A DNA stretch of 58,899 nucleotides, counting the filler, from Sphacelaria rigidula (taxonomy: Eukaryota): the NCBI GenBank assembly GCA_964200075.2. It is 9 parts of 9 records of this genome, joined end to end, with 100 filler letters (N's around TTAATTAATTAA, not from the genome) between each part and the next. Parts side by side here need not be neighbours in the genome. Positions count along the whole stretch, not along the records: positions 19,669 to 26,124 come from CAXNAA020019968.1; 8 more parts are not named here. The stretch is one strand, 5' to 3'. Both the position numbers and the translations under genes were made by a program. Under the pieces are notes generated by a model. That model did not search any database, was not told the DNA's origin, and saw only the letters and a list, made by a program, of their open reading frames with translations. Shown piece after piece: positions 3,001 to 58,899 of the stretch. Position 1 is the first letter of the stretch; each line of letters begins with the position of its first letter.

Positions 3001-3242
3001 CTCGTTTCCAAAATTCGTGGTGTGAAATATCGTCAAGCATGGTTGAGAGTTCGTCTATGATGATAGTACAACAGTTTCCTGAGAGGCGATAGCAGCGGGC
3101 GCAACTGCAGCTCGGCAAGCATCACACGTGCTACCTACGTAGATCGACCCGCGCGACCGACACCTTGAAAAATACTCATCGAAGATACACCGAGACCTGG
3201 TATAACGCAAACCAGGACGCGAAGTGCAGTGCAGTGACTTAC

Positions 3243-4691
3243 AAAAGCTTCTCGCCGTAGCGTGTGAGCAAAAACATGTTCCTGCCTGAAAAACGTGCAG
3301 CAAGAAGAACAGAGCAGTAGCACTGCCCTGCGATACGATCGCTATCTAAGACATCGACAACTTTCTACTGTGATGAGTGGGACCTCCTCGAACTACCGTT
3401 AATTACAAAACAGTAACCGTCCAGTGACAGCTGGCGGGCAGGTTGCACATACCGAAAGGTTCTTGACCAAAAAAACACCAACAGCCACAGCATACTGCAG
3501 ACAGTCACCTACCGCGGACTGCTGACTCGAGCAGTACAACCTGTACAGGATCAGGCTACACAGCAGCTGCAGTGTACAAAAACGATGCAGCCGCAGCCAT
3601 TGCAGCTGCAGATCACATCCCTGTCATCATTCATCTAACCCCCGGTCCATTCTCCCGGTATGCACCAACCAGGAACAAATTCCACAAAGCACACCTTGAA
3701 AGCACACGAGTCAGGGCACCGGGCACCTTGGGCGGTTTGCCCATGACAGCATCCTCAGCAGCGACCGCAGGAATGCTTCTGTCCTCCTCCTCTTCTGATG
3801 TCGAAACAGAAGCGGTAGTTTCTCCGCTAGCCGCGCTCTCTTCCGCCCTGTCTGCGCCCGATTTCGAGTTGGCTGGGCTAGGGGACGCGATGATTTCCCT
3901 TGGAGTCTCCCCACCACTTGTACCTAGTCCACTCTTGTCAACATCATGATCGCCCATCTTTACACCCTGTACGAATTCTCCGCTTGAGTCGAAAGCGGTC
4001 TTCGGCAACGCGCCGCGATCGGAGGTGATGTTTTTACTTTGGTGCCTGGCAGTGTGACACTGCTCTGATGGGGTCACAGCGACTGACGATCCAGTATTCA
4101 TAGACACAGTCGTATCAGCACCACCATTCTGACCCCCCTTCAAGAGGTGCGCATTGCCGTCACCCGCGTGCACAGGGGGCAGTGCACCGGCCATTTGGCC
4201 CGACTCTTTCTCTAATTTCTCTTGATCCCGAACCTCAGAGGCATCAGTGCGGACGCACAAGGGCACGCACTTCATGATGACGGCAGCGAGCCTCCCTGGA
4301 ACAAGCAAGGCAGCGCCACTAGTATGGGAAGAACCCGAGAGCCCAACCGGCGCCCTGCTGTGGTGTATGGATCGGTTGCAGCCTACTGGGTATGGTGGTG
4401 TACGGGGGTACTGCTCGATCTCTTGGCGGAAGTAACTTGCACTGAAGAAGGAAGGGGGTGGTACGCAGTGACATCACTACTCTTTGTACTGTATACAGTG
4501 AGGAACAGTAACATTAAGTGTGTTCATGTTCTCAACCACTGACGGTTGGCCTGTTTCGCGGTTTGGGTGCGGGTGTCCCGTCACCAAGCGTTCTTGCTGT
4601 GAACGACGTGTAAAAATGAGATCGTCCCGGCTCGCTGGTGTCCCCCAGATGATGTAGTGGCGGAGGAAGGCCTTGGAGTCGAGGAGGGAAG
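3243..4691 (-). CDS. Unknown spliced gene fragment; candidate exons 4691-4585, 4441-3695, 3285-3243
   Basis: Each exon has a pyrimidine tract plus CAG acceptor and a GT donor (gtgacg, gtgtgc, gtaagt). Phases are compatible (2,2,0). The 747-nt exon is open (ORF 3631..4308 extended upstream) and low-complexity S/E/G-rich. No family recognised. Confidence 0.45.
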
Positions 4692-5289
4692 CTGCGTGTA
4701 AAGAGCTACATGGGACATATATGAAGTTCGGCAGCTAAAGACAGACCAGACCGAGCAAACGACGGAGCTTACAACAGATATTCTGTATGACCTTGTGCTA
4801 TCGTTATTTTGTATGACTTTGTGCACATGGATTTTTTGTATGTGCGTGGGTCCCTATTATCCCTTCACACTACCGTACTGCCTTCGACTTTCGAAACAGA
4901 GTCCTTCCTATTCTCCCAAACTACGAGTAATACTATCCTCTGATCGTAAGCACTGCCTTCGCAATTGCGCATAGCAGTTTTAATCCGTATACCCTCAACT
5001 TTATGACTTTCTCTCCGCACTGTTCCTGCGTCCACACTGTTCGTGGGTACCGGATAATCTATAGGATCTACGACGCTGGGGTCTACGATGCAGTACGATA
5101 TGAGTGGATTTGTAGATTTGTCACAGATTTGTATGATATATTCTGACAGATTCTGACAGATCTGGCGTTTGTTGTTTGTTTGTTTGTTTGTTTTGTCTTT
5201 CTTTCTTTTCTCTCTCCGTTGAACTCGGGGGAGCTACTTCTCACCGGTTTTCGTGGCGTCGCTCTTCTTATTTATTCATTTTTCTTTAT

Positions 5290-7687: not shown

Positions 7688-8135
7688 CGCGGTGCGGGTA
7701 GTCCGTCTGAATCAAAGATACTTCCTTCAAGTGAAATTGATGCTGATTCAGCAGGTCACCTACCTCGCGGTCCAAGGGTCAACCCTTCCCTTCGACCGCA
7801 ACAATTAGTCACCTGCCGAATCGGCATCAATTTGACCGCGAGGGAAGGTCATCTGCTGAATCGGCAACAATTTCACTTGAAAATATTGTGATCCAGATGG
7901 ACTACGCGTATCGTGGTCAGACCGCGATGCGGGTAGTCCATCTCAATACTTTTTCAAAGTGAAAATGATACAGTTTCGACCCCTGGACCGCGATGAGCGT
8001 AGTCCGGCTGGATCACGAAACTTTTACAAGTGAAATTGATGCAGTTTCAACAGGTGACTCACCATCGCGGTCAAAGGGTCAACTCTTGGCGAGAGCAGAT
8101 CATTCGTTGAATTGGTGTCAGTTCCACTTGAAAAA
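7688..8135. repeat. Foldback/MITE-like cluster: inverted arms 7688-7760 and 7847-7915, then further direct copies
   Basis: The motif GTAGTCC(A/G)TCTG(A/G)ATCA...TTCAAGTGAAATTG occurs in both orientations. Related copies lie at about 720-780 and 5780-5806. Confidence 0.65.
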
Positions 8136-13195: not shown

Positions 13196-13484
13196 ACGCG
13201 ATTATACTGCTCAATTTTGGATCGTTTCCAATGAAATTTTGACATGATGTACAGGGCGTACGTGCGAAGACATCATCTTTCCTCCTCTTCACTTTGTTTT
13301 CTTCGTGAGTTATTTGAGGTTCAATCTCAGAAAAAAAACTGTTCTGAAATGTTCCGTCGCCAATAACTCACGGGGTGAGTGGAGGGAATGCAGGGGAGGA
13401 AAGATGATGTCTTCGCACACACGTCCTGTACATTGTGTCAATATTTCATCTTAAACGACCCAAAATTAAGCAGTATAATCGCGT
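13196..13484. repeat. Foldback element with ~100-bp inverted arms; a third arm copy lies at about 13705-13830
   Basis: ACGCGATTATACTGCTCAATTTTGGATCGTTT...GCGAAGACATCATCTTTCCTCC matches its reverse complement at 13390-13484. Confidence 0.7.
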
Positions 13485-14319: not shown

Positions 14320-15985
14320 CGGTCCAGCATGTATAACGTACGGAACATGTCCAGAAAAAAAAATTCAGCCATGGCTGATGAGGGTGTATGGAAGACAGTA
14401 AGGAAAGGGCAGGGTGGAATAAGGTGGGGAAGCGTAGTCGAGAACGTATGGAGGGATATGAGAGGAAACCAAGAAGAGATAATGTCCATAGGTGAATGTG
14501 AGAAGATTGGAAAAACAAAAAAAAGGGGGTAAGACAAAAAGTGAACGAGGAAGAGCACCCGAAGATATACCGGGGGTTGAAACATGGGATAGGGATGAAA
14601 ACGTATTTGCACGCCCCGATGACTACCCGAAAAAATTCACGGTTCGAACGAATTAGAGTTCATACAGGTTGACTCCTCATGAATGTTGAGTGCGAATCAT
14701 GTACCAAAGAGTCATCCGGTACGAATCACAGATGGTGGAAGTTGTACGTTCAAGGCCATACCGCACGAATCATGGACTGATAATGTGTATACTTCGGGTT
14801 GTGTAACACGAGTCAGGATTGGGAATCACGTACGAATCACGGTCCATGTGCGAATCACTGGTGGGAAACACATACTCATGATTCATCCTGCATAAACTGA
14901 AGGGTGGGGAACATGTACCTATGATTCATCCGTGAAAAATGGAAGGTGGGAAACATGTCCCGTTCATTCACTTCTCGCGAATTGCAGGTGGGAGGGATGT
15001 ACGTGTGATTCACGCCCTATCAAATGATAGGTGAAGACCATGTACCGACGGCTCATACCGTACAAGTGCATGTGCCATCCCGCATGAAGCAAAGGGCGGG
15101 AAACATGTACAGTTTATTCATCTCGCACGAACTACGCGTGGGAGAGATGTACATGCCGCTCACGTTGTATGAAATGACATGTGATAAACACGTGACGACA
15201 ATTCATACTGTGCAAAATGCATGAGGAAAAACATGTACAAGTGATTCATCCCGCATAAAGCAAAGGGGATTGATGTGTGTGCCCATGATCACGCCGTGTG
15301 AGAGGAAGGTAGGACACATGTACCTTCGACTGTGTACCGCAGAATCACGAACTCGGAATGTGTACACTCCAATTAGTGTCGCACGAATCACGAACCTATA
15401 ACATGTACAAATCACAAATAATGGACGAATCGTATGATTGATTCGTCCAAATGTTGATTATGAGTTGGATCATGATTTTATTCGTCCGAATCGTGAAAAG
15501 GTTGGAAGTAAGGTCTCGGGTGGGGGACCTGGACCTGCCAGGGAGAAGAAAGAGATATAGCGATAGTAGGGTGGAGGAGGTACATGCAAGGAATTGCCCC
15601 TGCGGCAAAGCAAAACAACAGAGAGTAGAGTTCATGTAGCGGGAGAATGTGAAGTACAGTATACAAGGAAGAACGGGACGTGTTGGAGGGAGAAATGTTG
15701 GAAATAAACGAAGTGAGATCAAATCGTCAGGTATATTAGATTGTAGCGAGAAAACGGTCCCTGACCTATGAGATAAATTGTGGCGGCCACAGGCGGGGAA
15801 ACAGGAAGGGGATGAGATATGTCAACGGTTGTGTGTCATGTATGGAAAAACCGTGACGAGCGCCCAAATGTTGAAGGTGTCTCTATTAGAAGTAGGAACT
15901 GTCCTCCGCCTCAAGAAGGATGGACAGTCAATGGTCAAACGACTAAGGTGAGCAACAAATTTTTATCCCCCCTCCCTCCCCTCCT
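14320..15985 (+). mobile_element. Decayed LINE 3' portion (ORF2 C-terminus with CCHC knuckle) ending in a C-rich tail; interrupted by a TIR element
   Basis: Fragments read VWKTVRKGQGGIRWGSVVENVW, KIYRGLKHGIGMKTYLH, then [insertion], then RVGDLDLPGRRKRY..CPCGKA..(frameshift)ESRVHVAGEC..VWKNRDERPNV. The C-x-C...H-x4-C pattern resembles the LINE ORF2 zinc knuckle. Related copies lie at 28395-28615 and 29905-30062. Confidence 0.7.
14636..15497. mobile_element. Non-autonomous TIR DNA transposon filled with a degenerate ~42-bp tandem repeat, nested in the LINE
   Basis: Termini TTCACGGTTCGAACGAATTAGA vs reverse complement TTCACGATTCGGACGAATAAAA. Internal units resemble GGTGGGAAACATGTACCTATGATTCATCCCG. 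The LINE-like coding sequence resumes immediately after the element. Confidence 0.75.
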
Positions 15986-16015
15986 TCCACACACACGGTG
16001 AACACATTTTTCTAA

Positions 16016-16133
16016 ATCCGCGTTTTTCCACACGCGGGGTGGTTGTACCGACTTTTTTTTTTTTTTCATGAATGGAATCAATATCTCGAGCGTGCGACTT
16101 CGTCATTTTCGGTAACCATGGAGGTCTGAGAAT
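16016..16133 (+). repeat. ~120-bp dispersed direct repeat (second copy 17449-17568)
   Basis: CACGCGGGGTGG..GTACCGAC..GGAATCAATATCTCGAGCGTGCGA..CGGTAACCA(T/C)GGAGGTCTGA occurs twice. Confidence 0.75.
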
Positions 16134-16872
16134 GCACGATCGGCGCAACCCGTGGCCGCTCCAGTACGGGGCGGAGCCCCCCGGATCTCACCCATCGGGG
16201 GGGACGTGCTCGGGCGCGTCAGCGCTCCCCGGTTGCCGGATGCGGCTCACTTTGCGTAAGTAACACTACTCACTTCTCACAGGAGTGCTTCCGGCGAAGA
16301 AACTGGCTCTCGTGGTGACCACCGCAACACAGCGTGGTCGCTGGCATCCATGGTGTCAAGTCCGATGGACCAACCGGGGTCCGCCTCACCTGTCCAGCGA
16401 AAGCTGTTCGTCTCTTTGACGTTTAGTTCGAGGTAGCTTCTTTCGTGGGGTCGGTGCTCCTTGCCCTGCCCACACTCTTTCTTCTGCGCGGTCCAGAGGT
16501 GCTGCCCGTCGGGTGACCGATCGGGGTCGGGTTCGCGGGGGTGGTGTGGGTGAGCGATGTACTGGTGCACTTGCCCGCATGATCCTCGGGGGCTGCCAAC
16601 GGTCTCTCCTTTGTTAGAGCTCCCATCTGTGAGATTCCTGAGCGTCGGTTGGGCTAGAATAGTCTTGGTTCGCACCATGCTGCGCTGGCTGGCGGCCCGT
16701 GTACGCATGCTCGCGGGGAAAATTGAGCTCGCGGGGTTCCCGCGTGGACGGAGCTAATATTGAGGGGGCCGGGGAATCAATATAACGATCGTTCCGCAGA
16801 GGATAGCTAATATTGAGGGGGCCGAGGAGGAACAACTCGTTTTCGTACCTGTTGTATGCCGTATAAAAAATC

Positions 16873-17441
16873 AGCCTGGTCCGGCAAAAACTCGGCGTGC
16901 TCCGTCCCGGCTTTGTAGGGACGGACCCCCGATGGGGTTGGCGTCGATTGACGATGATGCTGAGAAATACGCCACTTACTACGTAAGCTACGCAACCAGG
17001 TTACCGTTTTTTTTGCGCGCTTGCTTTTTTATTTTTGCGGTCACCATGATGATGATCGAGCTGGATCATGTTGTGCGGTGTGGGAAAACCTCAATTCCGC
17101 ACAAAGGAGATGATCGTACTACGTGGTGTCGAAACGGTGAGACACCCATGAGGCAGTGTATCAGCCATGGCTGTCTCTGGAAGTGGCGATACCAGAAAAT
17201 GAAGCAACTCATTGTAGGCTGTTATCCAAATACAAGATACTCAGTAGGCCTCGGTCCGAACCATCTCAGCAGGATGCAGCCCACCCTTTATGCGACTCGC
17301 CGAACACACCACGGTGCTTCACGCTTGGTGGTTGGATGCGAGCCTGGTCTAGCGAAAACCCGGCGTGCTCCTTCCCGGCTTTGTAGGGATGCGAGGTCAA
17401 TGATCTTATGACTATGGCTTGCATGATTACGAGCACACCCC
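16873..17441 (+). mobile_element. Family A non-autonomous retroelement (~570 bp), apparently full length, with a C-rich tail
   Basis: Collinear with 23283-23878. A ~49-bp segment at the 5' end is repeated at 17341-17389. The 3' ~70 nt are shared with the LINE tail. Confidence 0.75.
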
Positions 17442-18303
17442 TTCTAACCCCGTTTTTTTCAACACGCGGGGTGGCCGTACCGACCGTGTTTTGTCTTTTT
17501 CGTGAACGGAATCAATATCTCGAGCGTGCGAGTTCGTGATTCTCGGTAACCACGGAGGTCTGAAAATGTTCTCCACCCTCGGGGGTGCTATCCTCCGTCA
17601 TCATCTGTACCCGTGTATGTCGAACCTTGGGAGTATTTCCGTCGCCCATGGTGAGACCGTTCGATCATGTTTCTCCAAAGAAGTCATGGGGAAAGCAATA
17701 TTCAGACTATGCAGCAAATGCACGGATCGTTGCAAGTGTAAGCATCTGAGTTGAGTGAAGACAGTGTAGATGATGTATATGTTGGAGATGATGTATATGA
17801 TGAAGATGAATGTGACACCCATATGCAGACTTCATTTATGTGTATATGCCTGTATCGCAGGATGTGCTCTGTGCAAGCGAGGCGAGTCTACCAGCTCAGA
17901 CTTGAGAGCGCAAAAAAACAATATTTATGGATGAAATGCGTCAGCCCCGAGTGCAGTGAGTCTTGTCGGTTTTCGAGTGACTCCGTGTGTCAAACACGAC
18001 TTACTCTTGACGTGGTTTTAATATACAAGTACTTCTGCAGTGAACATGCCTTCTCCTTGTCAGCGTGTGAAAGTTCACCCCAATGGTCAAATGACTAAGG
18101 CAAGCAACAAATGAGTACGCCCCCCCTTCGCCCCTTCCTCCCCCCTATATCCACCAGACTGATAAGCTTGTTTTGTATGTGTATTTTCTCTCATAGCGTA
18201 GAAATAAATATTTCGCGATCCTCTCCAGTTCGCGCTGTACGGCAGGCAGTTGCCATGATATATTCCGAATGAGAGCAGGGTGTACGTGTTCGCGCGTCGA
18301 CAG

Positions 18304-19340: not shown

Positions 19341-19568
19341 CTTTGAGGATTGGCATCGGATGGCGATGACGCTGTAAAGCACACCACTCACTGCGTGAGC
19401 TAGGCGACCAGGTTGTCGTTTTTCTTGTCTCCATCTTGAAAGTGATGCGTGGTCGATGGTCAAACGACTAAGGCAAGCAACATATGAGAATGCCCCCCCC
19501 CCTGTGATGGTGAGGCACCCATGAGGCAGTGTATAAGCTGTGGCTGTCTCGGGAAGTGGCGATACCAG
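19341..19568 (+). repeat. Stack of family A fragments and a LINE tail separated by C-runs; truncated by the contig end
   Basis: Family A internal piece 19341-19428, LINE tail 19430-19503 ending in C10, and a family A piece 19505-19568. Confidence 0.7.
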
Positions 19569-19668: not shown

Positions 19669-19917
19669 GTGCTCCGTCCCGGCTTTGGAGGGATGTGAGG
19701 TCAATGGTCTTATGACTATGGCATGCATGATCATGAGTACACTCTAGCCCCCGATACTCCGTCTCGAAAGGGATGCATAACTAAGGCGAGTAACAAATGA
19801 GAACCCCTCCCCCCCCCCCTCACCCCCGCTCCGTCGCTCCGTCTCGAAAGGGATGCGTGGTCAATGGTCAAATGACTAAGGCAAGCAACAAATGAGTACG
19901 CCCCCCCCTCACCCCCT
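19669..19917 (+). repeat. Three tandem poly(C)-tailed 3' ends (one family A, two LINE type)
   Basis: 19669-19752, 19757-19828 and 19836-19917, each ending TGAG(T/A)AC followed by a C-tract. Confidence 0.8.
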
Positions 19918-19935
19918 GCGCGCGCAACCGGACAG

Positions 19936-22900
19936 GCTCGAAAAAAGTGATGATATAGACATCGTGGTAGGGGAATGGAGAGCAGAGGGCGACGCTGCAG
20001 GGGGTGGTGGTGCAGCAACTCCTTCGCTGGAGCATGGTGATGATATGTCGGCGGTACGGGAGCTGGAGTACATGCACCCTGTCAAGTCGCGTTTCCCCGG
20101 TATGCCGTCGCACGCGAAGACGTTCAAGACACAGCGGATTCACTACGATGCCGATAGTGATCGGCTGAACTTGATTGAGGAGAGTCGATTCAAGGGGATT
20201 CCCTATGCGAACTACTTTTCAGGTATTTTTCGTTTTTTCTTCTTCCAAGTTACGGTATTGTCGAAAAAATGACGAAGAAAAGAGAGCACTGCCTTAGAGC
20301 TACTATTTTGTTTTTTTTGCATGAGTATGATTTTGTTCTACTATAATAATAATAATGATGATGTTTGAACAAATATGAGCGAAGACAATTTTTGTTGTGC
20401 TCTTATTCCGTGGTATACGTAAGTCTCAGTGTTTCACTTATGTGAAATACGGTGTAATAGTCATTATGCATTGTTCCGCCACCAGAAAATTATTTGTTGT
20501 TCGTCTGCAAGAGAAGGGTTGTTTTTTACGTCAAGTGTGTCATGGGAAGACTTCTGGGTCGCAGCAGAGCCTTGGACTACATGAAAGTGTGTACGTGTGT
20601 GTACGTGTGTTCAATCGTGTTTTTTACGGCTTGCCTCGGCATTGCTGGGTCTGTGTATAATCAACCGATCACGTTTTTGTTTCATGCCACTGTCTCTTAT
20701 CTATGTGTGTGTGTGTGTTTTTTTTTCTCTCTCTCGCGCGCACGCCGCTGCGCGTTCGTTGTTTCATGGCCATCCAAAATCATAAGTGCACACACATTGG
20801 GCTGTTCATCCGGTGCAAGACGCCACCGACGGTGACGATGATAGTGCACATGCTATGGACGGACACCGCGGTTCGCCCCGCGCGGGTCGAACGGCACTAT
20901 TTTCGGAGGTCTCGGTGGCGGTGGGAGTAAGCTGGAAGAAACGAACCGTCTTGCGCGGCAAGGTGCGTACTGTACCATTCTGGCAAAGCATCAACGCATC
21001 CCTCTTCGTCTCCGCTTCGTCTGTCTGTCGCCCTTGCTCCCGCATCTGCACTATGAAATCAGCACGTGTTATTGGGCATCATATGTCGCGTGGGCATGCC
21101 ACGATATGTCACGCTGAAGTGCAATGTTGGGCTGATTTTGTGCGCTCTATATACATGAAATATTAAGTCCTACGGGTTGCACATGACGGAACGCAGGGCG
21201 GATATGCGCAACGCTGTCGACACAAGAACGGCCGCCTGGGGCGAGAGAGACAAAACTTGCCGTACACGTGCTGTTTTTTTTCTTCCTTTTCCTCAAGAGA
21301 TGTGTGTCGGGAAAAGGGGGAAGGAGAAACATTGCAAGGGCAGGTCGAGTAGAGTATACTCAATACTCAGTATTTTTTAAGAGTCATACTTTTAGTACTC
21401 AAATTTTGAGTAGATTATTGGAAGCCGTACTCAACGTACTCGAAATTTGAGTAGAGTATTTGAGACCATACTCAACCTACTCAAAATTTGAGTAGAGTAT
21501 TGAGGTCATATTCAAGTGATACTCTATACTCAAGTATCACTGAGAGTGCTTACTCGAAGTTTGACTAGAGTATTTGAGGTCGTACTCGACCTACTCAAAA
21601 TTTGAGCAGAGTATTTGAGACCATACTCAACCTTTTCAAATTTTGAGTAGACTATTTGAGACCATACTCGACCTACTCAAAAACTGAGTAGAGTATTGAG
21701 GTCATACTCAAGTGATACTCTATACTCCAGTATCACTGAGAGTGCTTACTCAATATTTGAGTAGAGTATTTGAGACCGTACTCAACGTACTCAAAATTTG
21801 AGTAGAGTAGTGAGGTCGTACTCGACCTACTCAAAATTTGAGTGGAGTATCTGAGGTCGGATCCGATGTACCGAAAACCTATAACTTCGACTTCGATATT
21901 CAAGTTCGTACGCAAGATACTCAAACTCGGGTAGAGGAAGTACCGAGGTATTTCTAGAGGTGCCTACCCATGATGAGTGTTGATTCAAGGTCAAACTGTC
22001 TTGTCAAACCGTAGCCAGTAGAGTCGCTCATTTTGATAATACCTACTCGATTCCTCGAGTACTCGTTTACTCGATGATGATGAGTAGCGCTCTGTACTGA
22101 AAGTGATACCGAAGGCGTTAAGAGGTATCCAGTATGAAGTGCCGTAGGTGGGGGCTGGTGAGATGGGGCGCTGGGGCAAGTAGGTTCGTTCACCTGCGCG
22201 CTTCTTGATTTTTTTATGGCCATCATTCGCTCGTACTCCTTGTTGGCTGTGATGTAATGCCACCCATCTAATTGATGGCCATCGTTCGCCCATGTATTCA
22301 ACATAGTCTGTAAACTGACGTCACGAAGTCGCCGACTATCAGGGGTACTCACCATACCCAAGGAGTACTCTATACTCAAGTATTACTGAGAGTGCTTGCT
22401 CAATATTTGAGTAGAGTATTTGAGACCATACTCAACGTACTCGAAATTTGAGTAGAGTATTTGAGGCCATGCTCGACCTACTCAAAATTTGAGTGGAGTA
22501 TCGAGGTCATACTCAAGTGATACTCTATACTCGAGTATTACTGGGAGTACTTACTCGAAGTTTGACTAGAGTATTTGAGGTCGTACTCGACCTACTCAAA
22601 ATTTGAGCAGAGTATTTGAGACCATACTCGACCTACTCAAAATCTGAGTGGAGTATTGAGGTCATACTCAAGTGATACTCTATACTCAAGTATTACTGAG
22701 AGTGCTTACTCGATATTTGAACAAGTAGAGTATTGGAGGCCGTTATCAAAATTTGAGTAGAGTATTTGAGTTCGTACTCAACCTAGTCAAGTTTTGAGTA
22801 GAGTATTTGAGGCCATACTCGATCTACTTAAACGTCGAGTAGAGTAAACACTTGAGTATTTTACTCGAGTACTCTAAAGTACATACTCTACCCGACCTAC

Positions 22901-24908
22901 CCTTGAAACATTGCACCATGGCACGCGGTTTTGGATCGCCCGGACCTTTGTTGGTGTTGTTTTCGGTGGGCGAACCCAGGTATCGAAAATTACGCTTGCT
23001 CGGCACGCTGAGCATGCTTGGTATTGTTAGATGGATATGTTACATCTCTTGCTCGGGTGGGCGACTCACTACTTGCTCCATCAGCCCTTATCAACTACTT
23101 CACCGTGCCAGGCATGTCACAAGTGTGTATGTTACATGTTTGTGCCAGTGCCTTCCGGCTTCTTGGGGGGTATGTACGCCATCGCTGCGGCGCCCGTAAA
23201 TTAGGCGGGTGATTGTTGTCATGAACCTTGAATTATGTGATGGGATGTTGGAACCCCACCCCCCTCCTCACTTCCCTCCATTAGCCTGGTCCGGTGAAAA
23301 CCCGGCGTGCTTCGTCCCGGCTTTGCAGGGACTGACCCTCTACGAGGTTGGCGTCGCGTGGCCATGACGCTGTATAACGCACCACTCACTGCATAAGCTA
23401 GGCAACCAGGTCACTGTTGTTTGTGGCGCGCTTGCGTTTTTTTTTTGCGGTAACCATGATGACGGTCGAGCTAGACATCATGTTGTGCGGTGTGGGAGAA
23501 CCTCCATTCCGCGCGAAGGGGATGATCATGCTACATGCTTGTTTAAATGGTAAAACACCCGTGAGGCAGTGTGTAAGCCATGGCTGTCTCTGGAAGTGGC
23601 GATGCCAGAAAATAAAGCAACTCATCGGAGGCTGTCTGTCATCCAAATGCAAGACAATCAGTACATTTCGGACCGAATAATCTTAGCAGGATGCAGCCCA
23701 CCCTTCACGCGACTCGCCGAGCACATCACGGCGCTTCGCGCTTGGTGATGGGTTGCGAGTCTGGTCCGGCGAAAACCCAGCGTGCTTCTACCCGGCTTTG
23801 TAGGGATGCGACGTCAATGTTCTTATGACTATGGTATGCAAGATCATGAGTACACCCTTCCCCTTCCTCACCTCCCTTTCGTTTTTTCCGAGGTCTACGG
23901 TGTAGCGTTGAATAGCTGCGCGGCTGTTGAATACACGTGGCGGCAGCGTCGAAACACCGCGTACAACACTATCTACTACATAAACTTGAGTGACATGGGA
24001 GAAGTGTTTATTTTCGTCTCGACACTTATTTTTGGCTGACTGCATGTCCCCCCCCCTTCCCAACCTCTCCCTTCCCCTCGGCGCCCTCTACACGACCGCG
24101 GCAGATTGAGAAGCAGACGCTCGCCGAGCACGGAGAGAGCCTGCAGCACTGGGCCACGGAAGCTGCCGTTGCTTGTAGATCATTATTCAAGGATGACATA
24201 TCTAGCCATGCTGACGAACAGAAGGCCAACAAAAATAACAGTCTCAGTACTACAGCGCCCCCGTCAGAAGATTCAGCAGAAGATAACGACCCATACGTCG
24301 AGGGTGGAAGATATCCCGACAGGATTTCTAGCGATGATACCGATGGTTTGGGGTCCGCAGGGGGGGGCATTGCTAGCGACAATTCCGCCAGCGCAGGCGC
24401 GGTAGTCACACCTACAAGAAATGACCAGAAATTTGAGGGAGATACGGGATATGTCAACACCGCGGTCGCCTCCATCAACAGTAACAACGAAGGCCAGCAG
24501 AGCACGCAAGAGGGACCCCCTCAGCCTAGCCAGACAAACTCCCAGGCCCATGCAGTTTCAAGAGGCGACACGGTTTTTGATAGCTGCCACAATGACAGCG
24601 AGCATGAGGGCAAAGATCTCGTCGGGGGTTCTCCCAAATCCAGAGTGGGTGGTGCTGTAAATGATGGCGATGACGTCGGGGGCATGGTGAGTGGCGGTGG
24701 GGTAATGTCCGGTGCGCCCAGCAGCAGCACTCATGAACATCCTACTGCTCTCTGCGGCGTGGGCAACAGTTGTGCTCCTCCGGGTGTCTCGGTGACCTTT
24801 TCCACAACGAAGAAAATAGACTGGGCCCGCATGATTCTAGGAAGGCGTTTTCGGGAACCTTCCTGGTGGAGGCGCAACAAGCAGCATCGCGCCGGGTGTC
24901 GGCCGTGA
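19936..24908 (+). CDS. VASt (StART-like lipid transfer, LAM/Aster/VAD1-type) domain protein, 3' part; exons 19936-20222, 20787-20962, 24105-24908 (stop)
   Basis: The spliced translation EW..RELEYMHPV..KTQRI..EESRFKGIPYANYFS/VHTHW..VAVGVSWKKRTVLRGK/IEKQTLAE..W follows the VASt pattern (PY.DYF.V..RW; V.W.K....K..IE). Junctions are GT-AG and phases are consistent. Confidence 0.8.
21335..22905 (-). mobile_element. hAT-superfamily non-autonomous transposon, 1571 bp, in the VASt intron
   Basis: Perfect 8-bp TSD AAACATTG (21327-21334, 22906-22913) and TIRs CAAGGG(C/T)AGGTCG(A/G)GTAGAGTAT. It has long subterminal arrays. A central minus-strand peptide YSLGMVSTPDSRRLRDVSLQTMLNTWAND resembles the hAT C-terminal dimerisation region. 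Confidence 0.88.
21395..21850. repeat. Subterminal tandem array of ~41-bp palindrome-containing units (second array about 22365-22830)
   Basis: The unit TACTCAAAATTTGAGTAGAGTATTTGAGACCATACTCGACC alternates with a ~50-bp variant containing AGTGATACTCTATACTCAAGTATCACT. Confidence 0.9.
23283..23878 (+). mobile_element. Family A non-autonomous retroelement, second full-length copy
   Basis: Same 5' start (AGCCTGGTCCGG) as 16873, internal repeat at about 23758-23806, and C-rich sequence on both flanks. Confidence 0.75.
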
Positions 24909-26320
24909 CTTGGACGTACGTAAAGAGGGGGTTATTGTACGTATACGCGCTCCGCCCCCCCTTTCCCTCCCTACTCCACTTCTTTGAGAACATGCCTTTA
25001 CAGGATGATTTTTTTTTTTTCTGGACGAGTGAACAGTATTTAGTTATGGAGATCATGTTAAATATGTTTTTTGTTTTGGACGAGGGGAAGGCAAAATTAG
25101 GTATAATGGCGGGTGAAGAGTCCAGCCCCTAATCTTTTGTTGGGGTAGCTTCTCCCAGGCGCAGGTTATGTCTGAAGTCACGTTAGAAGTTTTGTGTGTT
25201 CTCCCCCGCCCCCTCCCCTCACTCCTTACAGAATAAGGGGTAGGTACAAGGGTGGTGAAATGAAGCAGGGTTCAAACCGTAGGTACGGGGAGGCGGGGGT
25301 GGGTGGGGGGGTAACGGTCCTCTTTGCTTTTGATCTGCAGCATCACGGTTATTGACTGCGTGTCACCTTGCGTTTGGCACACTGCTGCTGCTGCTGCTGC
25401 TGCTGCTGCTACTGCTGTGTTGTTCGAGCGGAAATAGGGGGCACCGCGGTTCATCTACTTTCTTAGTCGAACAAGTTTAAGTTTATCGAGTGTAAATGAT
25501 CTATGCGATTTATGTAAAGTTTGGGCATAAATGGGTCGTCCGGAGGTCGACAGCGCCGTGGAAGAGTTGCCTCTACAGCTATCCTTTCTTGTGGTGCCGT
25601 GCTGTGACCCTGCTTTTTAGCTGAGCAATGAAGGGTAAGTAGTGCTGACACCGAGGCAAAGCCGGGTTCAACGTTACGTCTTCTTTTTTTTTCTTCATTC
25701 ATTTCTCGTCTCGTTTGAGTGTTTCGTCGAGGTGAACTGCGGTGCTCCAGCATGGGCATCCGGCAGGTAGTGTGTTCATCGAGTGAACTTAATTGTTGAG
25801 CGTGTGGCTATACGTAGCTCGCACTCACTCGGGTGTGGTGTGGTATGGGGTTGTTGTGAGGTTTGCGCGTTGCTAGTTGATGTTGATCTGCTTGTCTGTT
25901 CGCACACCGCATGTTGTCCTCTTTCGTGTAGTCTTGGGTACAATACAAGGTGAGTGGTGAATGGTGCCTAGATAATATTTAGTAGTGGAAGGAGGGAAGG
26001 GGGACTCCTACCCCATATCCTGTAAATGGGGGGGGGGGGGGGGGTTTTTGGGATTGCAATGGATGGGTGCCTCCCTGTTGGGTTGGGAGGGGTTTTTGTC
26101 TTGTTTGGGTTATTATTTTGCCTCNNNNNNNNNNNNNNNNNNNNNNNNNNNNNNNNNNNNNNNNNNNNTTAATTAATTAANNNNNNNNNNNNNNNNNNNN
26201 NNNNNNNNNNNNNNNNNNNNNNNNGCCGCGGCCCGGCTTAGTGGGGGTGGGGGGCCAGTGGGGGCTTGACCGGGGCATTCCGAATCATCAACTCCCCCCC
26301 CCCCCCCCTTCCCACCCTCT

Positions 26321-26575
26321 GATAAAATGAAGCAACTTCTTTGAGGCTGTCACCCAAACGCAAAGCTGTAGTACGCTTCGGGGCCGATCCATCTTGGGGG
26401 GATGCAGCTCACCCTTGATGCTACTCTCCAAACACATCATGCTGCTTCGCGCTTGGTGATTGACTGCGAGCCTGGTCCGGTGAAAACTCGGCGTGCTCCG
26501 TCCCGGCTTTGTAGGGATGCAAGGTCAATGGTCCTATGACTATGGCATGTATGATCATGACTACACCCCCCCCAT
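26321..26575 (+). mobile_element. 5'-truncated family A copy between C-tracts
   Basis: Matches the 3' half of 16873-17441. It is preceded by a long C-run and followed by C8, about 60 nt before the MutS2 acceptor. Confidence 0.75.
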
Positions 26576-26634
26576 CACACACATATCGAAAACACGCGGA
26601 CACGCCCTAATGTACGTCGGTGTTGTTGGGTCAG

Positions 26635-27989
26635 GCGCTGCTTGACGCCGGGGCGAGGATTGCTCTCACGACGCACTACACGCAGCTCAAGGAACTGGCG
26701 GCTCGGGACGATCGTTTCAGCGTGGCGGCTATGCAGTTCGTCGACGGCCGTCCTACCTATCGGCTGGTCCAGGGCGCGGTCGGGGAGTCGTTTGCGCTTC
26801 AGGTACGCATTTACACTATGTATAGTACCTGATATATAAAAATTCTGTCTCGTAAGTCAAAGTAGGTCATGTTTCATGGGGGGCTCTTTACCGTGTCGGA
26901 TGTGGTAGGCGATCACTTCTTATAAATCCTGCGGCATTTCCTTAGTTGACGGCATACATATACATGTATATATATATATATTTCTCCCCCTAAAACTCGG
27001 ATTTTTTTCATTTTTTTTTCATGAGCATCCCCGTAGTTTTGTCTCCTCAACAAATTTTACCATAGCATCGGAAGCACCTCCGTTGGGGAGGTACGGTCTG
27101 CAGCCTGCACTAGCCGGCATTTTTTTATTATAAAACAGAGGAAGTAGAAAAAAGCCGCAAAAACGCCGACGCCTCGCTTTTGCGCAAATTGTATGTGTTG
27201 ACCAACGACTCAGGATCATTTAATCGGCAGGCAATGATCGAAATGTTCAAGTATGGTTTCGTGGTTGACGTCTGTGGGTGGCTGTGCTCATGGGTCATGA
27301 TATTTTCATGTACAGTTATATATTTCCATGCTGTGATCGTGATCGGGCTCGTGGCAGAGTTGTCATGCGACGCAGGGGTTGGACGGCCGACGATGAAATC
27401 AATCGTTCGATCAATCAAGTGATCAAAATCGGCAATGGATGCTGTTTCTCAGAGCGGACGGGTACGTGAAGTAGGTAGGTAGGTAGATCGATAGGTAGAT
27501 CGATAGGTCTGTGGGGTGGAGAGTTTTCCCGTGATACCCTTGACGGGCTTTTTGGTGTGCGACATTCCCTACAGGCAGGTCGTTGTCTTGGTTAATTAAT
27601 TCGCCGTCTCCTCAAGTACGTATTGCCATTTCGCTCACATGAATGAAGACAACAACAAAAAAACATTTGCTTGTCCCATGAACATTTGGCCGCGACGGGA
27701 GTCCCACCATAAGGGGCGAAGAAAATCCAATCATTGTAAAGATTCCAAAACAGTTCGTACTTGTATACAATTCATGTACCGACGTGGGTGAGCAAAGAGC
27801 TGTTACGTCGGGGAAAGAGTTGACCGGATGTATACGTGGAAGTGTCTATTTATGCCGACTGTAGACTTGTGGATGATGGCAAAATTGTGTCTTTTCTCGA
27901 TTTGTTCGTGGTCTCCCGTGAGATTCTCACGTCCATGACGGCATGATTGCAGATTGCGGGTATCATTGCCTTCGCGCTCTCGGCGTGTG

Positions 27990-28036
<47 letters not shown>

Positions 28037-30638
28037 CGCGCGCGCGTACGTGTTCATGTGCGATTTTTATTTGATTGTCGCACTTTTACCGACCCCCCAG
28101 GGAACCAGCCGTGGTCACGTGGTTGACGTACCCGAGCCGAGATGAGGCAAAACTGAAACACTCGCTGAAGAAGAAAACAAAACAAAACAGAAGAAGTAGA
28201 ATAAAACAGAGTCGACTAGAAAAATGAAAAATAAGAAGACAGAAAGACAGGAATAAAAAAAAAAGCATGTGTGTGTGTGTGCAATATGTATATGTATATG
28301 TATATGTATTTTATTACTCGAACGGACGCCGTGGAGACGAGCTGTTGATGCCGCTCCTCTCCTGGGGGGGGTGAGGAAGTAGATGCACGAAATTGCTCTT
28401 GTGGGACAGCAACAGAGAGTGGGAGATGAGTGTGAACTAGTCAAAGGAGGAACGGGACGTGTGAGAGGAGAAGACATGCATGGAGGATCCAAACCAATGT
28501 GACATGAAAACGGTTGGTACGCTAGAGGGATAGCAACGAGAAAAAACATCACTGTACGATTAGATAGATGGTGGCCAGAAACAGACGGCTAAACAGGAAA
28601 GGGATCAGATATGTAAAAAAAGGTTATTGTGTACGAGCTGATCCAGCCAAGAGTTTCTATCGGCGATTCAACAGTTACGCCCAGCTTAATATCAGAAGTT
28701 AAAAGCTGAAACTTTGACCGGAGATTTTTGTTATCAATACGCGGAAAGTAGCTCAAGCAAAGAAAAAGAAAATAATAAGAACACAACGTCAAAAGTAAAA
28801 TGAAATCTATGTGTGTGTTGTTTTGTCGTCCCATCTATTCTGGACGCCGATCTACACCGTTCGCTATATGTGGACGCACCAGCCGGGGTCACGCAGGAGG
28901 AAGGTCGATACTGGAGCTTTTTATTTTTTTATTTCTCTTTAGTACCCCACCTTCCTTCTGCGGTGCTTGCCTTTCTTATTTTTCATCGCGAAAGGGGTTC
29001 AGCAGTCCCTTTCCCTCGTCGACCGTCAAGTCGACATTCTATCTGAACGAAAATAATGCCACAGCTCAATTTTAAGAATATATAAAATTCTATTTCTTCC
29101 ATTACGCATTTTCAATTTGATTGCAGGAAATTCTCGTATAAATTCGGATCAAAGCTCCAACAATTGAGCTGCACATGCGCATGTTTTGTGTCACACCGCG
29201 GCAGCCTGGTGGTCCAAGTGACACAGGAGACTCCAGCAATGGAGAAGTGTAAAATGAGATGAGACTCCAGGTACGGAGGGCACGAGTTCGAATTCTGAAA
29301 AACAGGCATCGGTCGCCCCGGTGGCTCAGTTGGTAACCTCGAAACCTTCTGACGGTTGGGTCGTGGGTTCAAATCTCGGTACGATCTGGGATTTTTTCTC
29401 ACGCAATGTCCGACAGTGGAGAGCGACTATAATATGTCGTGGGTGCACAAAATTCGACTTGACGGTCGACGAGGGAAAGGGACTGCTGAACTCCTCTCGC
29501 GATAAAAAAGAAAGAAAGGCAAGCACCGCAGAAGGAAGGTGAAGTACTAAAAACAAGCAGAAAAGAAAAAAAAAAACTCCTGTGTTGACCTTCCTCACGT
29601 GTGATTCCCCCGGCTGGTGCGCCCACGTATTAAACCGTATGGTGTAGATCGGCGTCCAGAATAGATGGGAGGACAACACAACACACAACACTCATTTTGC
29701 CTGCAGCATCTGGTGACGTCGTTGAGGTCATATATTTATGCGGTACATGTTTTTCCTTTTCTCCTTAACGGCGATAGAGCGTGTATCACCATCACCAGAT
29801 TAATCTGCAGTTTTTACAGCGATATGCTTCCATCGGGCTGATGCGGGAAGCCTAAAAAGGTGTTGTGTGCCCGGGGTACGCACGTCTTTTTCAGGCTGGC
29901 CCACAGCTCGTGATGCGTGGGGAAAACAACGTGACGAGCGTCCATGTGTTGGACGTGTCGGCTCTACTCGGAGTAGGAACAACGTATGCTCCGTCTCGAA
30001 AGGGATGAGTGGTCAGCAGTCAAATGACTACGGCAAGCAACAAATGAGTACGCCCCCCGCCGCCTCTCTGTGTATGTAGGTACGGCATGCAAGATCGTGA
30101 GTACACCCCCCCTCTCTCTGTCGTTGCTTTTGTGCTGCCCCTTTTCCCCCGTGCCCCCCTCCCCACTTTGTTGTTGTTATTGCTGCTGCTGCTGCTGCCT
30201 GCTGCCTTTTCTTCTAGGTTGCAGAGCGTTTGGAACTTCCAGCTTTCGTTGTGGAGCGGGCACGAAGCCTCCTAGACGAGAATACACGACAGGTGATGAA
30301 AAATAGGTTAGTCGAGTCATGGTCCTCCACTTTTCTTGTTTTGTTTTGTTTTATTTTTCGTCTTGCTTTGCCGATGCGTCAACAGCCATCATATGTTTTT
30401 TTTTCTTGTTTTTTTTTCTTGTTTTTTTTTCGCCTCTATGGGTCTTTTTTTGTTTTGATGCTGCTGCACCGTGGAGCTCCTCATGTAGTTTCGATTAATT
30501 TGTATCTTCAATACCCGGCGGTTCGTATGAGGATGACATACAATGAGTGAGGGGATATCTAAACGAGCAACTTCGTGCCGTGGTGATGGTTATCGTTGTT
30601 GCTTCTGTTGTAGGACTAGGAAGAGACGTAGGATTAAC

Positions 30639-32622: not shown

Positions 32623-33901
32623 TCCCCCACCCCCCACGCGCCCCCCCACCGCCGACAACGCCACACACACCAAAAAAAANNNNNNNNNNNNNNNNNNNNN
32701 NNNNNNNNNNNNNNNNNNNNNNNTTAATTAATTAANNNNNNNNNNNNNNNNNNNNNNNNNNNNNNNNNNNNNNNNNNNNCCGTCCCGGCTTTGTAGGGAT
32801 GCGAGGGTAATGGTCTGATGACGATGGCATGCATCATCATGGGTACCCTCCCGCCCCCCCCCCGCGTCTCCTTCACCTGCTGCTCTCTTTCTCCTTCCCT
32901 CCACTGGTTTTGGTCTCTTAACCTTACTCGTCTCGTCTTTTTTGTTTTTGTATCATGATTCGTTTGACTTGGATTCTGCTGTTGTCGTCGTCGTCGTCGT
33001 TGTTGATGTTCATGTTGGTATCGCCATTCTCCATTGTCGTCGTTTTGTCGTCGCACTGTCGTTACGGAGCTCCTGCCCAAGTACTCAAGCCCTCAAATAT
33101 ATAGCTAAGCCTTTACCTCCTTTGATGGCCTTGTCGGTTTCGTTGTGTTCTGCTTTGTTTAGATCTTGCATGACTTCCATCCTGGAAGCATGCAGAAGGG
33201 GTCTCCTGGCTGTTTTTTCACTTCTCAGTTTTCACTCTACTGTTGGGTCTGTTCTTTCCTTTACTCACATCTCACCATATTTCCGCCTTGTCGAGTTTCC
33301 TCGGCGAGTGTTCGGTTCACTTAAAAAGGGTACATGTCTACATATATTCTGCGACGACGGCCGGATTCCGAGCAAATAAGTTAGTAAACACCAATCGATC
33401 AATCAATTAGTCAATCACCCCATCATACACCCCGCTCCCCAACTAGTATTCTACTAATGCCGGGATACCTCTCCCCCCTACAAAAAGTGCGCCGGAGACC
33501 GTCTGACAAACCGGCTGCGATCCCACTATTGGGCTCGTTTGCAGCAATTTCGCCCACATGAGAGATGTGTAGCAGTCCGAAATTAGCAATAACGCCCAAA
33601 TAAGTAGCGTCGTGCAGCACGAAACCAGCTCTAACGGCATTTATGATCATTGCCTCCGCGCACTTTCCTGGCCGGTTCAGGGGAGGGGGTTATATCTCGG
33701 CAGCAGTCATTAGCAAGCGCAGGTATATTGGAACATGCGAACATCGAGTATACCGTTCCACAGGCGTGTTTCGAGAAGGACTATACGGAATGCCTCCTTC
33801 GCTGTGCGTCGGCCCTTCAACCCCGATCCAACCCCAGTGGATCCTCCAAAGGCATCTGACGTAACACCGTCCTATCCGTCCGGATTTCTTTTGCTGTACA
33901 G

Positions 33902-48524: not shown

Positions 48525-48810
48525 AAAAACTTCATGCCGTTTCAAGGAGTTGGGCCCTGAAATTTTGCACAACTGTGCTATGGATCATTACGTAACTTTG
48601 CATGGACGAGATTTTTTATTTTTTGTTCTTTTACCGTTTTACGGGGGTCCGACTGGACCAAAGATTTTCCCGAAAAACTGGGACCCCGGGAAAACGGTGA
48701 AATAAGTCAAACAGAAAAAAACATCGTCCAAACGAAGTTGCGTAATGACCCATAGAACACCTGTGCAAAATTTCAGGGTCTAACTCCCTAAAACGGCGTG
48801 AAGTTTTGCC
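48525..48810. repeat. Foldback element with ~125-bp inverted arms; degenerate related copy at about 48130-48330
   Basis: AACTTCATGCCGTTTCAAGGAGTTGGGCCCTGAAATTTTGCACA matches the reverse complement of TGTGCAAAATTTCAGGGTCTAACTCCCTAAAACGGCGTGAAGTT. Confidence 0.75.
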
Positions 48811-51429: not shown

Positions 51430-51655
51430 GAAATTCGACTCAACGGTCGATGAGGGAAAGGGACTGCTGGACCCCTCTCACGATAAAAAAATCAAGGCAA
51501 GCACCGCAGAAGGAAGGTGGGGTTCTAAATACAAACAAGGAAGAAAAAACTCCTGTGTTGACCTTCCTCCTATGTGAGCCCGGCTGATGCGCCCAGATAT
51601 ACCGAAGGGTGTAGACCTGCGTCCAGAGTAGATGGGACGACAACACACACAACCC
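51430..51655 (+). mobile_element. 5'-truncated SINE family B copy
   Basis: Collinear with 29450-29690, including the ACAACACACAC tail. Confidence 0.75.
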
Positions 51656-58108: not shown

Positions 58109-58835
58109 GTGGAGGATCCAGGCCCGATCTCTGACGAGAGCGTCGCATTTTTTTTTTCCTTCCTATTTTTCAAGTGATCGCGACAGTTTGTTCTTGAACT
58201 TAGTTTTTTTCTTAAGATTTGATATATATTTTCGCGATCGTACTATACATTTATTCAATTTTTCGGATTTTCCAACGTATAACGGGCAGCCACGTGTTTC
58301 CCCGCATCGCATGATGCCAACTTTATTTTCAATTTTTGTTCAGATTCAGTTTTCTTCTTCGTCGATGTAACCTCATCTCGTCATGCTCAAGGAGGCATTT
58401 TGTAGGTATTGGAAAAATTGGACGAAGAATATATCACTCTCTTGTTCAGAACGGGGCCACGCGCGAGGCTGATTTTTTTTTTTTTTTCCGTCTTCCTGCG
58501 TCTGTCGTTGACGACGTTTCGTTCAGTCTTGGACACAACTCGCAAACCGAAAGAAGAGGTGTATTGTCCGTGTTCGATTCGCAGCCAGCTTTTCAATGTT
58601 TGTTTCATTTGTGTCTGTTCGGTGTTCGTGTGTTATCGTTGTGTTTTGGCTTGCCTCTCGATCATTCCATCAGAAAGGATGTTGTGAGGGGCGTGGCTGC
58701 GCATCCTAGTGACGGATTCCGGGGGGTTACAGAGTAGTTGATGAGTGCGTTCGAACAAGCGTTGCTGCTTTCAGCGACGATGTAAAGCGGAATTTTGTGG
58801 AAGAAACGGCCCAAAGTACCCACCTACTATCGTAG

Positions 58836-58899
58836 CACGTGGTCAATGGTTAAACGACTAAGGCAAGCAACAAATGAGTACGCCCCCCTCCCCCCCCCC
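58836..58899 (+). repeat. LINE-type 3' end with poly(C), at the window end
   Basis: GTGGTCAATGGTTAAACGACTAAGGCAAGCAACAAATGAGTACGCCCCCCTCCCCCCCCCC. Confidence 0.8.

Follow-up and report, generated by a model that had tools for sequence, protein, structure and literature searches.

We analyzed a stretch of DNA of 58,899 nucleotides (nt), filler included, from the brown alga Sphacelaria rigidula (NCBI GenBank assembly GCA_964200075.2), hereafter the window, in which parts of a VASt-domain gene and of a MutS2-type gene lie among copies of one C-tailed repeat system. The window consists of nine stretches, four of 6,456 nt followed by five of 6,455 nt, joined by N44-TTAATTAATTAA-N44. These stretches, numbered here as contigs 1 to 9, are probably whole contigs of a fragmented assembly, which would account for the several that begin or end within repeats or homopolymer runs. 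BLAST searches with long copies, tails, and loci of a long interspersed nuclear element (LINE) identified 20 pieces of the repeat system in contigs 3, 4, 5, 6, and 9. The repeats are likely to be a brown-algal LINE (tail type A) and a non-coding partner of ~575 nt (B) that uses the last ~60 nt of the LINE, both inserted at runs of C by target-primed reverse transcription.

The original prediction for this DNA placed all copies but one on the + strand, and this was borne out: 19 of the 20 pieces are on the + strand and one is on the - strand (38836-38782). The pieces fall into 14 distinct loci, of which 13 are on the + strand. Since the strand of a contig is arbitrary, this orientation can be read only against that of genes or of further copies on one contig, and, since contigs break at these very repeats, the sample is biased in what it shows. 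Three contigs begin at most 10 nt from one common position of the B tail, which is what breakage of the assembly at this repeat would produce. The five repeat-bearing contigs are all mostly + in spite of their arbitrary orientation, an outcome with a probability of 1 in 16 by chance.

A 23-nt core motif of the repeats had 6 matches in the window versus 0 in 100 shuffles. Within contigs, the 3' ends read GAGTAC(A/G), a motif that is degenerate in older copies, and are followed by a C-run, often of the form Cn-T-C-rich. The terminus of tail type A is ...GACTAAGGCAAGCAACAAATGAGTACG and that of tail type B is ...GACTATGGCATGCATGATCATGAGTACA. The 20 pieces have a common 3' end and varied 5' ends, a hallmark of retroposition. 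Contigs of four sequencing runs (X1, X2, and X4, of DNA and from two studies; X5, of a kind guessed to be RNA) were compared with the window over contig 4 only. The copies and the adjoining features are as follows.

14332 to 15984 (14332-14634 and 15491-15984), + strand: old, interrupted LINE copy with A tail and C-run; 67-75% identity to positions 243-1043 of the LINE loci
16870 to 17446, + strand: full-length B in contig 3, without a 5' C-run or a target site duplication (TSD); 5' end as in the other full copy
18081 to 18126, + strand: short LINE 3' fragment and C-run; 100% identity to LINE loci L001 and L003 over 46 nt
19345 to 19568, + strand: stack of a B-internal piece (19345-19413), a LINE tail (19429-19492), C10, and, up to the contig end, B from its position ~270 (19507-19568)
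19669 to 19745, + strand: 3' tail of the B type (non-autonomous) cut by the contig start, then the degenerate C-run CTCTAGCCCCC; 87-94% identity to other B tails
19757 to 19827, + strand: older, internally deleted LINE 3' fragment A48 (19757-19804) and C-rich tail including the 5' TSD copy (19812-19827); 71-73% identity to the LINE loci
19828 to 19900, + strand: young LINE 3' fragment A65, with an 8-nt duplication, GCTCCGTC, then the last 65 nt of the LINE (final codons and TGA); 97-100% identity to L001, L002, and L003 over 73-81 nt
19901 to 19916, + strand: 3' copy of the 16-nt TSD CCCCCCCCTCACCCCC, which is the C-rich tract 19 nt before the acceptor; 16/16 matches to 19812-19827
19934 to 20222, + strand: acceptor AG (19934-19935) and exon of the VASt-domain gene; block of the X5 contig from 19936; Pfam VASt, E = 1.7e-8
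23260 to 23877, + strand: full-length B (23280-23854) with C-rich TSDs (23260-23277 and 23860-23877), in intron 20963-24104, ~227 nt from the acceptor
26294 to 26580, + strand: C15, then 5'-truncated B (26324-26565) with a C8 tail, 61 nt before acceptor 26634; 80% identity over 247 nt to the full copy
28365 to 28633, + strand: old LINE-internal fragment in MutS2 intron 26804-30217; 67.5-70.5% identity to the LINE loci
29924 to 30121, + strand: stack of a LINE 3' fragment (29924-30052) with C6 and a 25-nt B tail (30081-30105) with C7, ~100 nt before acceptor 30217
32780 to 32863, + strand: B tail at the contig start, C10
38771 to 38854, - strand: sole minus copy, a 55-nt B tail (38836-38782) between C11 (5') and C8 (3'), as read on its own strand; TSD 11/11
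39051 to 39234, + strand: stack in a C-run, with C10-G-C7, a 26-nt B tail (39072-39097), C9, and B from its position ~284 to the contig end
52445 to 52517, + strand: B tail at the contig start
58838 to 58899, + strand: LINE 3' fragment and C-run at the contig end; 95-96% identity to the LINE loci

The LINE, its partner, and their insertion sites

Three public loci with the A tail emerged from an exact-pattern scan, two of them on metagenome contigs and the third on a contig filed in a prokaryote bin. The scan gave 0 viral contigs, and the prokaryote bin contains only its one copy. In each of the three loci, a long open frame terminates in the A tail, and C9 to C13 come next. The 339-amino-acid (aa) frames of these loci contain ...CPCGKAIESR.HIV.EC... 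NGAPSRKGCVVNGQMTKASNK, followed by TGA, GTACG, and C9 to C13, so that the stop codon lies 5 nt before the C-run. The 339-aa piece retrieved two longer proteins, P0002 (1,360 aa) and P0003 (1,328 aa), both with Exo_endo_phos and RVT_1 domains; in P0002, RVT_1 spans residues 740-989 (E = 9.8e-31), Exo_endo_phos residues 170-392, and Exo_endo_phos_2 residues 279-414. Contig L005 (5,259 nt) contains an intact open reading frame (ORF) of 1,382 aa that is 88% identical to P0002. An apurinic/apyrimidinic (APE)-type endonuclease N-terminal to a reverse transcriptase (RT) in a single ORF is the organization of a LINE. Thus, the LINE is a single ORF of ~1,360-1,380 aa coding for an APE endonuclease and an RT and, because this ORF ends in exactly the A tail, the A copies of the window are fragments of the 3' end of an autonomous LINE. 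The repeat is therefore a retrotransposon lacking long terminal repeats (non-LTR), as originally predicted.

The best relatives of solved structure in the PDB were L1 ORF2p chains (E = 6.6e-21), and R2 chains were also among the best. The C-terminal 339 aa of the LINE matched no Pfam family. Ectocarpus proteins were 71, 48, and 51% identical to the LINE C terminus, and the named homologues came from Ectocarpus or other brown algae. Given these homologues and the GT..AG introns of the window, an origin from a dinoflagellate was rejected. The 48-71% identity to these unnamed Ectocarpus proteins and the fit to the published description of RTE-X elements suggest that the LINE belongs to the RTE-X clade. 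No RT is encoded by the window itself, since comparison of its 59 ORFs of at least 110 aa with Pfam gave VASt as the single match. L005, filed in a prokaryote bin, is almost wholly (positions 1-5259, minus strand) one brown-algal LINE and is likely to be a mis-binned eukaryotic contig.

The B element, of ~575 nt, is non-coding and has only its last ~60 nt in common with the LINE (77-85% identity). The copies at 16870-17446 and 23280-23863 are 83% identical over 579 nt and have the same 5' end; the other B copies are 5' truncated. B contains an internal repeat of 49 nt (positions 14-62 versus 482-530), the two units being 86-90% identical in the window (16873-16921 versus 17341-17389 and 23283-23331 versus 23758-23806). 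The element begins with a 49-nt copy of the start of its own 3' tail region, a possible trace of its origin. Because of this repeat, we considered a Penelope-like element or a retrozyme and discarded both, given the APE endonuclease encoded by the partner ORF and the lack of a match to any ribozyme family. Comparison of B with Pfam, Rfam, and tRNA models gave no match, and a 215-aa ORF inside B had no Pfam match. Over the whole window, no Rfam family reached the gathering score and no tRNA was found; the region 16800-17500 gave only chance-level scores (E = 0.78 or worse). Of the properties of a short interspersed nuclear element (SINE), B has the tail in common with a partner LINE; a head derived from tRNA, 5S, or 7SL RNA with an RNA polymerase III promoter was not found. 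B is therefore better called a LINE-dependent non-autonomous element than a demonstrated SINE.

The original prediction described C-rich sequence on both sides of many copies. A C-run is present at all 3' ends located inside contigs. At the 5' side, taking as criterion at least 5 C within 30 nt upstream, 9 of the 15 junctions inside contigs were near a C-run, compared to a background of 3.6% for all positions on both strands (P = 4e-10). TSDs were searched for 11 copies and scored against 300 shuffles. Seven of these copies are surrounded by duplications containing a C-run, with 16/16, 16/18, 11/11, 12/13, 12/14 (the stack at 29924-30121), and 13/15 matches (the copy at 26324-26565, with a shuffle p of about 0.08), to which is added C9 directly before 39106. 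The LINE fragment at 19828-19900 is flanked by the perfect 16-mer CCCCCCCCTCACCCCC (19812-19827 and 19901-19916). On either side of the B copy at 23280-23854 stand 18-nt repeats (23260-23277 and 23860-23877) that agree at 16 positions. None of the 300 shuffles attained the score of either pair. Since the 16/16 and 16/18 repeats contain letters other than C, they are duplications of a target that already held the run rather than two independent tails. Together, the upstream runs at the junctions and the C-run-containing TSDs indicate that C-runs are the target of insertion.

In the model of L1 insertion, reverse transcription is primed by a homopolymer exposed by a nick, with A where C stands here. 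By analogy, the endonuclease would nick the G-strand at the 5' edge of the C-run, and the exposed 3' end of oligo(G) would pair with the terminal C of the RNA to prime cDNA synthesis. A second nick 0 to 22 nt past the run would lead to duplication of the C-run and of the few next bases on both sides of the insert. Incomplete copying would generate 5'-truncated copies, and the RNA would be chosen through recognition of its tail. The insertion geometry may be described as that of L1 with C in place of A.

Host genes and the position of copies in introns

A contig of X5 (2,244 nt) joins positions 19936-20220, 20785-20960, and 24103-25295. After a shift of 2 nt, its junctions are GT..AG and one frame is open across them. 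The contigs of the DNA runs continue through the first intron, between the blocks 19936-20220 and 20785-20960. The spliced X5 contig thus confirms the acceptors at 19935 and 24104 and places the VASt gene of contig 4 on the + strand. In contig 5, the ORF piece 26611-26829 matches MutS2 (PDB, E = 4.8e-5), with brown-algal orthologues up to 87% identical. This piece and the one starting at 30218 align to consecutive residues of the brown-algal MutS2 protein P0010 (502-559 and 559-584, respectively), which supports the acceptors at 26634 and 30217 and a MutS2 gene on the + strand. The MutS2-type exons would be 26635-26803 and 30218-30305 (the orthologues have MutS_V and Smr domains), and the 3.4-kb intron between them holds three repeat loci. 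A PDB search with the second exon (38 aa) gave nothing meaningful, and comparison of the 117 ORFs of at least 40 aa of contig 5 with Pfam gave one chance-level match. In contigs 3, 6, and 9, Pfam gave no match to any ORF of 110 aa or more, and ORF 54560-55156 of contig 9 had no homologues among 6,688 candidates.

All four acceptors that had been predicted are thus supported, and the tails of the copies end ~19 (acceptor 19935), 61 (26634), 100 (30217), and 227 nt (24104) upstream. At 19935, the original prediction held that the tail is effectively the pyrimidine tract, and the 3' TSD copy, C8TCAC5, is indeed the sole pyrimidine-rich tract before the AG. Because this tract is the TSD at 19901-19916, it had the same sequence and stood at its present distance from the AG already prior to the latest insertion. 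The proposal that insertion rebuilds the tract fits at this site, where the C-rich tract was left unchanged by the duplication, and applies to this one site only. More generally, a 3' duplicate would preserve the sequence from the tract to the acceptor, so that sense insertions at such places should be harmless to splicing.

All five repeat loci located in introns of the two strand-verified genes are in the sense orientation (P = 0.03), in agreement with the prediction that the copies follow the strand of the host genes, and four of the five lie within 230 nt of an acceptor, a zone that accounts for 15% of intron bases (P = 0.002). These intron statistics are post hoc and concern 5 loci in 2 genes; restricted to complete introns, the proportion is two of three loci (P = 0.026). 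From this pattern, it may be proposed that the LINE and its partner preferentially colonize C-rich tracts just before 3' splice sites in sense, that the TSD re-creates the tract so that the site stays both functional and a target, and that introns thereby grow serially at their 3' ends. We regard this extended model as possible but doubtful. There is about an even chance that sense orientation and nearness to acceptors are an accident of a small and biased sample. The contigs are short and broken at repeats, the strand of the host gene is established for contigs 4 and 5 alone among the five repeat-bearing contigs, and contig starts in or adjoining repeats truncate two of the five introns. Counting runs of at least 6 nt that are not tails, the verified introns have 5 of C and 4 of G on their sense strand, and target asymmetry thus does not explain the orientation. 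Against an accident of sampling stand, besides the two probabilities above, the agreement in strand within contigs of eight of the nine non-first loci (P = 0.02) and a native C9 located 48 nt upstream of acceptor 24104, indicating that such tracts occur where the model needs them. Tract preference, sense bias, and intron growth, as originally put forward, are therefore suggestive at these 5 loci and do not stand as a general rule; sense orientation and nearness to acceptors constitute a lead, suggestive only.

Other repeats occupy the same introns. A tandem array at 21393-22846, in the 3.1-kb intron of the VASt gene, has periods of 41 nt and ~155 nt and short palindromic units (TACTCAAAATTTGAGTAG-like); its summed depth of 2-3e5 in X1 points to a very abundant repeat. 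Members of a ~220-nt family (82-85% identity) are found at 28812-29034, at 29454-29687 (inverted), and, in contig 8, at 51435-51651, the first two lying in the MutS2 intron as inverted copies with 420 nt between them. Elsewhere in the window, at 13196-13484, 7695-8075, and 48526-48807, there are near-palindromic stretches of 200-290 nt with the appearance of foldback elements or miniature inverted-repeat transposable elements.

Stacked copies and other readings of the C-runs

Head-to-tail stacks are present at all four places where they had been described (19345-19568, 19669-19916, 29924-30113, and 39072-39234). According to the proposed mode of insertion, each event would leave a fresh C-run at its 3' side and later copies would land there, giving stacks arranged head to tail, in which the most recent copy lies closest to the 3' flank. 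In the stack preceding acceptor 19935, the copy nearest the exon (A65) is 97-100% identical to the LINE, whereas the preceding copy (A48) is 71-73% identical and internally deleted. This gap in age fits serial insertion at the run of the previous copy and argues against a single duplication as the origin of this stack. The alternative is that each stack arose in one event or by later tandem duplication, through template switching between RNAs or unequal exchange. It could account for the recurrence of the junction of a 71- to 73-nt unit (joints from 19906-19908 back to 19836) in 93 contigs of X1, 85 of X2, 48 of X4, and 4 of X5, for the 8-nt duplication GCTCCGTC at the 5' junction of A65, and for the stack at 19345-19502, in which a B-internal piece is joined to a LINE tail with no C-run between them; a related Ectocarpus element has also been described as one that 'can be present in tandem' (PMC12477816). 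However, the neighboring units in 19757-19916 are far apart in age, and the younger unit has its own perfect 16-nt duplication. A single-event origin is therefore unlikely as the explanation of the stacks, although template switching or tandem duplication may contribute to stacks elsewhere.

A further alternative is that the C-run is only a tail, carried or added in the manner of poly(A), that insertion is not aimed at C-runs, and that the C-rich 5' sides come from common old tails. The run is indeed on the 3' side of every copy, yet 6 of the 15 junctions are without one on the 5' side, and five of the nine upstream runs are the tail of a recognized earlier copy. The repeat is also extremely abundant: the summed word depth over 19669-19884 was 7.9 million in X1, a value that is not a copy number, versus 64-104 in unique bins. 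Behind 19742 and 19908, we found 300 and 310 loose ends, respectively, in X1 (X2 and X4 being similar) that start with at least 12 C, so that C-tails follow these ends at many other places. On the other side, the flanking repeats with 16/16 and 16/18 matches consist of the run plus letters other than C, and four upstream runs (23280, 26324, 38836 on its own strand, and 39072) are not preceded by a recognized copy, compared to the 3.6% background (P = 1.6e-3 for those four). The TSDs of the Ectocarpus relatives are likewise called 'C-rich' (PMC12477816). We therefore consider it improbable that the C-run is a tail and nothing more. It is highly improbable that errors of sequencing or assembly at the ends of contigs created the homopolymer runs. 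C- or G-runs do form the start or end of several contigs, and G36 and G28 border a 10-N gap, but contigs of the three DNA runs, from two studies, cover positions 19884/19887 onward through C8TCAC5 with 0 to 1 other letters. In all four sequencing runs, loose ends by the hundred extend into C12 or longer, and the LINE end is likewise followed by a run in three unrelated contigs from public collections.

Several observations weigh against insertion at C-runs by target-primed reverse transcription as set out above. The six 5' junctions without a C-run (16870, 18081, 19345, 19429, 29924, and 58838) include that of a full-length copy (16870), and four of the 11 copies (16870, 18081, 29924, and 19429) showed no duplication above the shuffled controls. 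Native C-runs as first targets are represented by four cases. No empty site was found, and no joint bridging either element of contig 4 was present among the 15 joints listed (there are 1,677 more), so that the pre-existence of the run follows from the logic of the TSDs alone. The contigs of X1, X2, and X4 that are anchored in unique sequence start at 19884-19887, and the arrangement upstream of 19884 is that of the window assembly alone. The nicked strand and the specificity of the endonuclease are proposed by analogy with L1, and the placement in RTE-X relies on a published description. Finally, a hairpin was predicted in the tail, but 0 of its 14 pairs had a compensatory change, which leaves recognition of the tail through its structure unsupported.

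Additional repeats and runs were observed at or near the insertion sites. A sequence of ~125 nt occurs at 16010-16134 and 17442-17568 (85% identity), directly after two C-rich tails, those of the LINE fragment at 15904-15984 and of the full-length B at 16870-17446. This may reflect another element that was inserted into both tails and has one 5' end in common, or a target that is itself repeated. The ~85 nt upstream of two insertion sites in different contigs (38985-39050 and 58770-58837) are ~70-75% alike, and both end in GGCCCAAA, followed by C10-G-C7 at one site and by TACCCACC at the other, possibly a further C-tailed family or a repeated target. The whole window contains 24 C- or G-runs of at least 9 nt versus 0.3 expected from composition. 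Most long C- or G-runs are not attached to a recognized A or B tail; at 37713-37878, runs of G36 and G28 flank the 10-N gap.

Related elements and implications

Elements of this type have been annotated in Ectocarpus, and the description below is that of the library entries and passages concerned (PMC12477816, Genome Biology 2025). RTEX-1_Ec32 is listed with 'single EN-RT ORF; (C)n 3'' and a 'C-rich' TSD, and RTEX-2_Ec32 with '(C)n termini/TSD'. RTEX-N1_Ec32, of 607 bp, is listed with '60 bp 3' end 83% RTEX-1_Ec32/RTEX-2_Ec32' and a 'C-rich' TSD. Its authors likewise took the partner as a LINE-dependent non-autonomous element. RTEX-1_Ec32 and RTEX-2_Ec32, with the partners RTEX-N1_Ec32 and RTEX-N2_Ec32, thus resemble the Sphacelaria repeats in their single EN-RT ORF, (C)n 3' end, and C-rich TSDs. 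The partners resemble B in being non-coding, of ~600 bp, and able to occur in tandem, with a 3' end of ~60 nt at ~83% identity and an unexplained 5' head, and the Ectocarpus elements are also described as very high in copy number and frequently intronic. The features annotated for RTE-X in Ectocarpus all recur here, in the form of the 1,382-aa single ORF, the C9-C13 end, the C-rich TSDs, and the ~60-nt tail of B. The present elements differ in coming from another brown alga and in a LINE that is only ~70% alike at the protein level to its Ectocarpus matches, the two systems being compared by description. Since the Ectocarpus library already lists (C)n-ended RTE-X LINEs and their partners, the C-run element type is already known. 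Thus, the retrotransposon specific for homopolymer C that had been predicted stands as regards insertion at C-runs, as supported by the TSDs, but not as a previously unrecognized element. The terms 'orientation', 'C-rich', and 'homopolymer' are absent from the main text of that article, and its searched passages contain no mechanism of C-run targeting, no orientation relative to host genes, and no distance to splice sites. A literature search for poly-C-tailed non-LTR elements gave nothing relevant. Novelty may therefore be limited to the possible preference for intron ends.

Mammalian L1 and Alu offer a parallel that combines an APE endonuclease and an RT, priming at a homopolymer, TSDs starting with the homopolymer, 5' truncation, a short non-coding partner, and insertion of new copies in old tails. 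The present system differs from L1 and Alu in using C instead of A, in an ORF that ends 5 nt before the 3' end, and in a partner that has the tail sequence of the LINE, which suggests specific recognition of the tail. Microsatellite-specific LINEs are known in the R1 and Tx1 groups (Waldo, Mino, Kibi, and Koshi); they have di- to tetranucleotide targets and are nearly always found within them. As in these elements, the 3' end carries the same simple repeat as the target. Unlike in these elements, the repeat is a mononucleotide run, and, whereas a target-specific LINE has nearly all of its copies in one motif, 9 of the 15 junctions adjoin a C-run and 6 do not, in one window. RTE-clade elements reportedly generate microsatellite families in Lepidoptera, where a signature of RTE-related SINE insertion is also said to occur. 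The similarity to the present system is that the 3' ends of RTE-type LINEs and of their short partners are associated with simple repeats, which there are apparently not homopolymer C.

As it stands, this analysis amounts to the ordinary annotation of a very abundant brown-algal LINE and its partner, the C-run ends of which are already on record. Most intronic transposable elements show a deficit in the sense orientation and close to splice sites. If the extended model is true, the elements would be tolerated or even favored near acceptors, since their own duplication restores the tract, and they would provide a natural case of homopolymer-primed reverse transcription with C in place of A. If the intron pattern is true genome-wide, it would offer a concrete mechanism for the long introns, rich in transposable elements, of brown algae.

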